Numbered from the stretch's first letter, positions 24,948 to 25,257 are shown. The stretch: DNA of 64,000 nt from GCF_056746865.1 NZ_CM163382.1; one strand, 5' to 3'. The notes: generated by a model from the letters alone, not told the origin. A program made the numbers and translations.

Positions 24948-25257
24948 TCATGTCCGTTCGTAAGAGTTAACCGTTGCTAAGGGAATGATAACGATGCAGT
25001 AAAAAATAATAACGATGAGGCGAACGACAAAGTTAAAAACGACTGCGGACAGTCCCCTCGCCCCTCTGGGGAGAGGGTTAGGGTGAGGGGTAAAAAACGC
25101 GACTAACCCCTCCCCCGGCCCTATCCCTGAGGGAGAAGGAGAAAACCATCCCGCTTTCGTTTTTAAGATTTTGTTGACCGTCTCAATTACACGCGTGACC
25201 CGACGCGGGAAATGTCGGGGCGCTCTCCCAAGTGACACACTTTCGAGAGGATTCAGG

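Follow-up and report, generated by a model that had tools for sequence, protein, structure and literature searches.

The 310-bp spacer between gabT and gabP in an Escherichia coli genome holds a cluster of G/C-rich hairpins, which raises the question of what these palindromes are and whether they influence expression of the genes on either side. The DNA analysed here is a 64,000-nt stretch (termed the window) that belongs to E. coli: positions 24900-25300 are 100% identical to strain 118UI, in which RefSeq places gabT and gabP on the two sides; literature searches turned up nothing about the phylogroup of this strain. The spacer occupies 24948-25257, the gabT stop codon ending at 24947 and the gabP ATG beginning at 25258. 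The flanking genes are as follows.

23667 to 24947, + strand: gabT coding sequence, stop codon TAG at 24945-24947 (ORF list and RefSeq annotation of 118UI, which shows no difference from the window in the 401 nt compared)
25258 to 26658, + strand: gabP coding sequence (ORF, translation and RefSeq annotation)

Approximately 14 kb around the spacer is collinear with glaH(csiD)-lhgD-gabD-gabT / gabP-glaR(csiR) of K-12, with the K-12 glaH-lhgD-gabD-gabT block showing 95.8% identity to the window. Across window positions 16932-31004, identity to K-12 is 95.8% upstream of the spacer and 97.5% downstream, with 250-nt bins as low as 91.6%. No clear divergence block was found around the spacer, the whole gab region being 92-99% identical to K-12. 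A 142-aa ATG ORF on the minus strand (24948-25376) covers the entire spacer and extends into gabP; RefSeq annotates nothing there, and the ORF is probably an artefact of the G/C-rich sequence of the repeat described below. Small plus-strand ORFs within the spacer were considered and rejected as spurious; RefSeq has no annotation for them either.

All of the palindromic strings listed in the initial annotation are present in the spacer at the positions given there. cccctcgcccctctggggagagggttagggtgagggg spans 25054-25090, ccctctggggagaggg spans 25062-25077 with 6-nt arms and a GGGG loop, cccctc (25054-25059) faces gagggg (25085-25090), and cccctcccccggccctatccctgagggag lies at 25107-25135. That these are chance products of G/C-rich sequence, or a member of the REP/BIME family, has nothing in its favor beyond a general resemblance to extragenic palindromes, and we regard it as almost certainly wrong. 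The G-rich 22-mer GGGAGAGGGTTAGGGTGAGGGG and the degenerate core pattern GGGNGAGGGNNNGGGNGAGGG each match once in the 64-kb window, against 0.00 matches expected for either from 100 shuffles. At the RNA level, the 171 nt at 25014-25184 fold at -81.7 kcal/mol, compared to -52.2 +/- 4.3 for shuffled sequences (z -6.83, with 0 of 200 shuffles as good), and a 151-nt stretch of the region folds at -70.4 kcal/mol (z -5.7); as DNA, 25014-25184 gives a fold of -37.9 (z -4.78). Family membership in REP/BIME was rejected on motif content, as no GCCGGATAAGGCG- or GCCGGATGCG-type motif occurs in 24948-25257 at up to two mismatches, while the K-12 allele of this spacer displays GCCGGATAAGGCG-type REPs and the alleles of E-1246 and E. 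albertii likewise have such motifs. A scan of 24600-25600 against Rfam (E <= 10) returned only eukaryotic miRNA-type models, scoring 12-20 bits against thresholds of 37-97, with E >= 0.29.

The spacer instead matches a different dispersed repeat of E. coli. This element was named BoxC in work by Bergler in 1992 and by Bachellier in the 1990s, and PIT elements were described by Hoyne and Maher in 2000 and 2002. Under its most recent name, TMECO, which followed BoxC and PIT, its consensus is 5'-CCCTCNCCC N3-6 GGGNGAGGG N3 GGGNGAGGG-3' (Holder et al., 2015; PMC4666352). Positions 25055-25089 fit this consensus with 0 mismatches in a regular-expression search, and the 36-nt core is identical at 36/36 positions to MG1655 TMECO nos 9, 16, 19 and 22, which are listed as type 'A mm' in Table 1 of PMC4666352. 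Judged from its sequence, the hairpin cluster is thus one copy of BoxC (PIT, TMECO), an intergenic repeat dispersed through E. coli, in the form of a forward type A core paired with an inverted type B core.

25054 to 25090, + strand: BoxC/PIT/TMECO core, type A (loop TTA), identified by regular expression and 36/36 identity; its G-rich strand is the mRNA-sense strand
25107 to 25139, - strand: degenerate BoxC core, type B (CCG-type loop), inverted; the + strand reads CCCTCCCCC-GG-CCCTaTCCC-TGA-GGGAGAaGG

A canonical or near-canonical type B core occupies the same position in strains FORC_028, CUVET16-321 and IAI1 and in Pseudocitrobacter faecalis. Pairing of type A with inverted type B has been reported at five MG1655 loci (PMC4666352), and four of these five pairs align with the window copy, including approximately 30 nt of left flank and an AGAAAAC right flank; the left flank common to the K-12 type A copies reads GA(T)GACAAAGT..AAAAAG.GCTC.G.CAGTC. 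The window copy differs from the K-12 pairs in that its B core is degenerate, with two substitutions and a second loop of 2 nt rather than 3 nt, and in that its centre is 12 nt shorter. The copy agrees with the BoxC family in consensus, flank homology and multi-copy occurrence, and of the three readings offered by the initial annotation it is the repetitive extragenic element that is borne out.

To count copies, a 106-nt query covering both cores was run against 5,426 complete E. coli genomes. BoxC-like places were found in 5,419 of these, with a median of 16 per genome (range 1-27), and nearly all are chromosomal, only 30 of 77,865 lying on plasmids. In a phage collection the element is nearly absent, and most E. 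coli matches filed as plasmid are chromosome-sized records; several E. coli records of 4.8-4.9 Mb are filed as 'plasmids' in PLSDB. Copy number is strongly lineage-dependent, CFT073 and SF-468 having only 3-4 BoxC-like places. Partial matches to the element occur on many Sinorhizobium, Azospirillum and Rhizobium plasmids. Campylobacter phages A18a and A11a show an 85% match to nt 14-81 of the insert (left arm and A core), which is odd in that setting and may be contamination. Within K-12, the pstA-pstB spacer, which lies inside an operon, holds a core identical to that of the window, and another such core adjoins fabI (fabI-ycjD), where MG1655 TMECO copy 9 is located. The fabI neighborhood is the envM locus, at which BoxC was first described.

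The element, its paired form and its presence between gabT and gabP have all been published before. In the supplement of PMC4666352, strain IAI1 has TM no. 207 at NC_011741, 2,839,010-2,839,043; this supplement carries no gene names, and the entry, found through its type B core sequence, was confirmed to lie between gabT and gabP. Published descriptions, as far as the text available to us extends, deal with a core of 34-37 nt and with its pairs, and a 171-bp composite with outer arms and an empty site does not figure in that text. We found no description of such a composite with a clean empty site, or of the dimorphism between BoxC and REP in the gab spacer; both are refinements rather than a new kind of thing.

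The extent of the repeat within the spacer can be read from genomes that lack it. Repeat-free spacers of 121-140 bp are found in Citrobacter sp. R56, Pluralibacter gergoviae and Shimwellia pseudoproteus, and these read ..CGTTGCTAACGGAATGATGACGATGCAGTAAA..CAATAATACGCGTG.. followed by the conserved leader of gabP. In REP-type E. coli, E. albertii and E. whittamii the sequence CAATAAC|AATTA.ACGCGTG runs on without a break, and the repeat-free genera show it with minor deviations. Because the flanks are contiguous in REP-type Escherichia and homologous to the repeat-free spacers, the extra DNA is assigned to 25014-25184, and alignment with the empty sites shows these 171 bp to be an insertion, between CAATAAC and AATTACACGCGTG, in an older spacer that had no repeat. 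The borders of the insert obtained from the empty sites coincide with the extent of its self-complementarity, such that two independent criteria give the same limits. The spacer accordingly divides into the following parts, between which the two cores listed above are set.

24948 to 25013, + strand: remnant of the ancestral REP-free spacer (..CCGTTGCTAAGGGAATGATAACGATGCAGTAAAAAATAATAAC), homologous to the repeat-free spacers of Citrobacter sp. R56, Pluralibacter gergoviae and Shimwellia pseudoproteus
25014 to 25184, + strand: composite palindromic insert of 171 bp (BoxC A+B pair with outer arms), absent from the empty sites and folding as one hairpin
25014 to 25053, + strand: left outer arm (GATGAGGCGAACGACAAAGTTAAAAACGACTGCGGACAGT), which pairs with 25142-25184 and is homologous to the left flanks of K-12 type A copies
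25091 to 25106, no strand assigned: palindrome centre (loop), the most variable stretch of the spacer; the pairs of K-12, yggL-yggN and others have 12 nt more here
25142 to 25184, + strand: right outer arm (..CCATCCCGCTTTCGTTTTTAAGATTTTGTTGACCGTCTC), complementary to the left arm; the copies at yggL-yggN and ygfF-gcvP have homologous right arms (..TTTGTTA.CAATCT.)
25185 to 25257, + strand: conserved gabP leader of 73 nt, not part of the repeat, near-identical in both allele classes and conserved across genera

The last 13-16 nt or so of the ancestral remnant are also retained in REP-type E. coli alleles. The outer arms belong to the repeat rather than to the surrounding sequence: full-length homologues possessing the two arms, in the forms GA.GACAAAGTT.. 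and ..TTTGTTA.CAATCT., occur at yggL-yggN of strain SW070919 and at ygfF-gcvP of K-12.

In its architecture the insert resembles a MITE, in that it has terminal inverted repeats: the outer arms at 25014-25053 and 25142-25184 pair with each other and are conserved at other loci. It differs from a MITE in the absence of a target-site duplication, none of 2 nt or longer being found at the insert, where at most one ambiguous base (C) is common to both ends; AATAAC and AATTAC are both present, adjacent to one another, in the empty sites. The TMECO survey likewise saw no link to mobile elements (Holder et al., 2015; PMC4666352). No annotated mobile-element feature covers the matches listed from the plasmid and phage collections, a result that concerns the matched stretches themselves and is no proof that a transposase is missing. 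Structural parallels exist in other families. ERIC/IRU of enterobacteria and Correia/NEMIS of Neisseria are co-transcribed, palindromic, MITE-like repeats. Like the BoxC insert, they measure 100-170 bp, possess long inverted arms, insert in intergenic positions including those within operons, exist as filled and empty sites, and fold into one long hairpin in mRNA; they have no sequence similarity to BoxC, however, and Correia elements duplicate TA, whereas no target-site duplication accompanies the 171-bp insert.

The insert is one of two alternatives found at this position. Among the 5,426 complete E. coli genomes, 1,304 (approximately 24%) carry a BoxC-type spacer and 4,080 (approximately 75%) carry the K-12-type spacer, in which a REP/BIME array replaces the 5' part and nothing is held in common with the window from the stop codon to about position 25000. 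The initial annotation had considered hairpins of this kind unusual inside an operon, a view that is contradicted by K-12, where REP/BIME sequences sit in this same spacer and the pstA-pstB spacer contains BoxC. REP-type spacers are also present in E. albertii, E. whittamii, Escherichia sp. E1V33, several Citrobacter species and Salmonella diarizonae. Within Escherichia, these spacers contain from one to at least four tandem BIME units, and their length varies by whole units, from 237 bp in K-12 and E. whittamii to 328 bp in E. albertii and 416 bp in Escherichia sp. E1V33. A metagenome-assembled contig labelled Pseudocitrobacter, which is E. coli-like, has at least four BIME units between gabT and gabP. 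The two allele classes are alike in that each occupies the gabT-gabP spacer, would be co-transcribed, folds strongly and is variable, the REP/BIME array in copy number; they differ in that the sequences of the array and of the window's spacer are unrelated. REPs also have partners, namely the RAYT/TnpA-REP transposase, gyrase and, in some BIMEs, IHF, and mRNA-stabilising effects have been shown for them; to our knowledge, BoxC has neither known partners nor demonstrated effects of this type.

Variation among the BoxC-type alleles is unevenly distributed. The sub-allele found in the window, with a decayed B core and a changed centre, is the rarer form of the BoxC-type allele, represented by approximately 115 records at >=99% identity. 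When four E. coli BoxC-type alleles were compared, 62% of columns in the centre (10/16) and 20% of those in the B core were variable, compared to 5-11% in the arms and A core and 1% in the leader. P. faecalis DSM 27453 also possesses a BoxC-type allele, and its spacer is 89-93% identical to the E. coli alleles, with the arms and the 5' remnant included, whereas third codon positions of gabP are 74.5% identical; the GabP proteins of the two species are 99% identical. Third-position identity to P. faecalis is patchy, ranging from 64 to 94%. The similarity of the P. faecalis spacer could reflect selective constraint, or it could reflect an exchange more recent than that of the genes.

We then consider what such an insert might do within the operon. 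The initial annotation proposed a partial terminator, and an intrinsic or bidirectional terminator attenuating read-through from gabT to gabP has some appeal, as the stems are G/C-rich, a U-rich 3' arm (UUUCGUUUUUAAGAUUUUGUU, 25156-25176) faces an A-rich 5' arm in the manner of bidirectional terminators, and one weak terminator-like site lies on the minus strand at 25054-25041. A consensus scan for promoters and terminators nevertheless detected no promoter-like site and no plus-strand terminator in the spacer; over 800 nt it returned three terminator sites against 0.9 +/- 1.0 expected, none of them relevant. While intrinsic terminators likewise combine G/C-rich stem-loops with a U-rich 3' side, the U run of the insert is not adjacent to the G/C-rich stem, from which it is separated by approximately 17 nt, and it is itself base-paired in the minimum-energy fold, within the 3' arm. 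What comes right after the complete hairpin is AAUUACACG. Intrinsic terminators moreover have short stems, whereas this hairpin extends over more than 100 nt and closes from end to end, with nt 4 paired with nt 171 and an outer helix of approximately 18 contiguous pairs. Finally, PIT elements showed neither promoter nor terminator activity in the reporter assays of Hoyne and Maher, as those assays are cited in PMC4666352. We consider a terminator very improbable, and that part of the initial annotation is not supported.

Control at the level of RNA, after transcription, is a further possibility. The initial annotation also raised the idea of an RNA-processing site that sets the gabT:gabP ratio, which is physically plausible because the hairpin is long, but for which we found no positive evidence. 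In its strongest form, this explanation holds that the 171-nt hairpin is a target of a double-strand-specific RNase or an obstacle to 3'-5' exonucleases, giving gabT-proximal and gabP mRNA unequal stabilities, and that it has been selected as the functional equivalent of the REP/BIME array. The transcript would contain a single, very stable hairpin with approximately 18 contiguous outer pairs; the REP-type allele has an equally stable fold at the same place (-73.2 kcal/mol), both alleles giving folds of approximately 165-170 nt; and the spacer is more conserved than synonymous sites between E. coli and P. faecalis. There are precedents in other repeats, as a REP stabilises upstream mRNA in malE-malF, and as ERIC in Yersinia and Correia/NEMIS in Neisseria are co-transcribed and change transcript abundance by way of RNase E or RNase III. 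For BoxC itself, neither RNase cleavage nor any influence on expression is known to us. A post-transcriptional effect, as an exonuclease barrier or through RNase III-type cleavage, is physically plausible given the predicted fold, and the presence of stable folds at the same place in both alleles would be compatible with a selected function for an intercistronic hairpin.

Several observations weigh against selection for such a function. In a comparison of five alleles, none of 60 predicted pairs of the 171-nt hairpin showed a compensatory change, which equals the value in shuffles, so that this covariation test provides evidence neither for nor against selection at the RNA level. The centre and B core are decaying in the sub-allele found in the window, and Citrobacter sp. 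R56, Pluralibacter, Shimwellia and Hafnia do without the element, yet conserve the gabP leader. In addition, the published survey found TMECO elements to be unrelated to gene class, distance or operon position (PMC4666352). On balance, we judge a selected role in RNA-level control to be unlikely. A still bolder proposal is that a large intercistronic RNA hairpin is required where gabT meets gabP, a requirement satisfied by the BoxC pair in approximately 24% of genomes and by REP/BIME in approximately 75%, with the BoxC composite being maintained by selection; we give this only a slim chance of being correct. Were it true, it would explain why conservation between E. coli and Pseudocitrobacter exceeds that of synonymous sites, it would represent the first demonstrated function of BoxC, and the outputs of gabT and gabP would differ between the allele classes because the first REP stem of K-12 begins 11 nt past the gabT stop codon and the BoxC palindrome begins 66 nt past it.

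The consequences of the insert may instead lie in the DNA. One explanation holds that the single-stranded core forms a triplex, G-quadruplex or cruciform that stalls polymerases and makes the locus a hot spot of mutation or rearrangement. An intrastrand purine-motif triplex has been demonstrated in vitro by CD and NMR for type A oligonucleotides, and the triplex was stable with one nearly identical to the present core, polymerase stops in vitro being reported as well (PMC4666352); between the type A mm consensus, as given in Table 1 and in the published control oligonucleotide, and the window core, the first loop is the sole difference (TTT vs TCT). Excess variability was reported around TMECO loci in 56 strains (PMC4666352), and variation in the gab spacer is concentrated in the palindrome centre and B core, the hypervariable centre fitting both the in vitro triplex and the excess variability. 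The spacer also exists as two unrelated alleles, and there are four G-tracts at 25068-25090, which on the mRNA-sense strand read as the G-quadruplex motif GGGG-AGA-GGG-TTA-GGG-TGA-GGGG. The purine triplex is not expected to form in RNA (PMC4666352), in which the G-quadruplex and the hairpin would be competing folds.

As the main account of the element, such DNA-level activity faces three difficulties. The triplex went undetected when DMS footprinting was carried out in vivo (PMC4666352); REP-type alleles, with one to at least four BIME units, are also unstable, so instability is not specific to BoxC; and fragility of this kind would be a consequence of the repeat rather than its function, and as such is compatible with the insert being a passenger. 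We treat DNA structure as a possible but doubtful main explanation.

If any part of the spacer controls gabP output, the conserved, structured leader at 25185-25257, which is predicted to pair with the Shine-Dalgarno sequence, is a better candidate than the repeat. The initial annotation of the hairpins made no mention of it. The leader of MG1655 has one substitution relative to the BoxC-type allele, and the sequence is conserved in Citrobacter, Pluralibacter, Shimwellia and Hafnia and absent from Salmonella diarizonae and Citrobacter amalonaticus. Two hairpins are predicted. P1 (25192-25222) contains three pairs with compensatory changes, and P2 (25223-25249) is invariant, with a CUCUC that is predicted to pair with the gabP Shine-Dalgarno GAGAG(G) at 25245-25250 and with an ACA terminal loop inside the CA-rich stretch GUGACACAC; in Shimwellia, a 13-nt insertion falls exactly in this loop. 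With RNAalifold and pair counts, 98.4% of cells were paired in the leader alignment, compared to 29-58% in slid controls. The leader has no Rfam match, and our literature search returned nothing on a promoter between gabT and gabP or on gabP as a GcvB target. We regard the leader as a candidate cis-regulatory RNA or sRNA target.

For the insert itself, we infer that it may be a passenger with at most a modest effect. The explanation as a whole, in which a BoxC A+B pair, together with its outer arms, entered an older spacer and rides there as such a passenger, appears to us highly likely to be correct. The insert would be a selfish or neutral sequence co-transcribed in the csiD-lhgO-gabDTP mRNA, where it would fold into one long hairpin, distinct from a canonical intrinsic terminator. 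Should it influence expression, it would do so after transcription and probably to a modest degree, with the hairpin acting as a barrier to 3' exonucleases or as a substrate for a double-strand-specific RNase that uncouples the stability of gabT and gabP. At the level of DNA, its potential to form an intrastrand triplex, a cruciform or a G-quadruplex may make the locus prone to mutation, above all at the palindrome centre.

With this identification, a previously unexplained hairpin cluster receives a name and exact borders, and the idea of a terminator can be set aside. The clean empty site shows that the unit that was mobilised or copied is the whole 171-bp palindrome with its arms and not just the 36-nt core, which bears on how BoxC has spread. 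The occurrence of BoxC and REP/BIME as alternatives in one spacer inside an operon, in turn, offers a natural pair of alleles with which the effects of such repeats on the expression of flanking genes can be tested.
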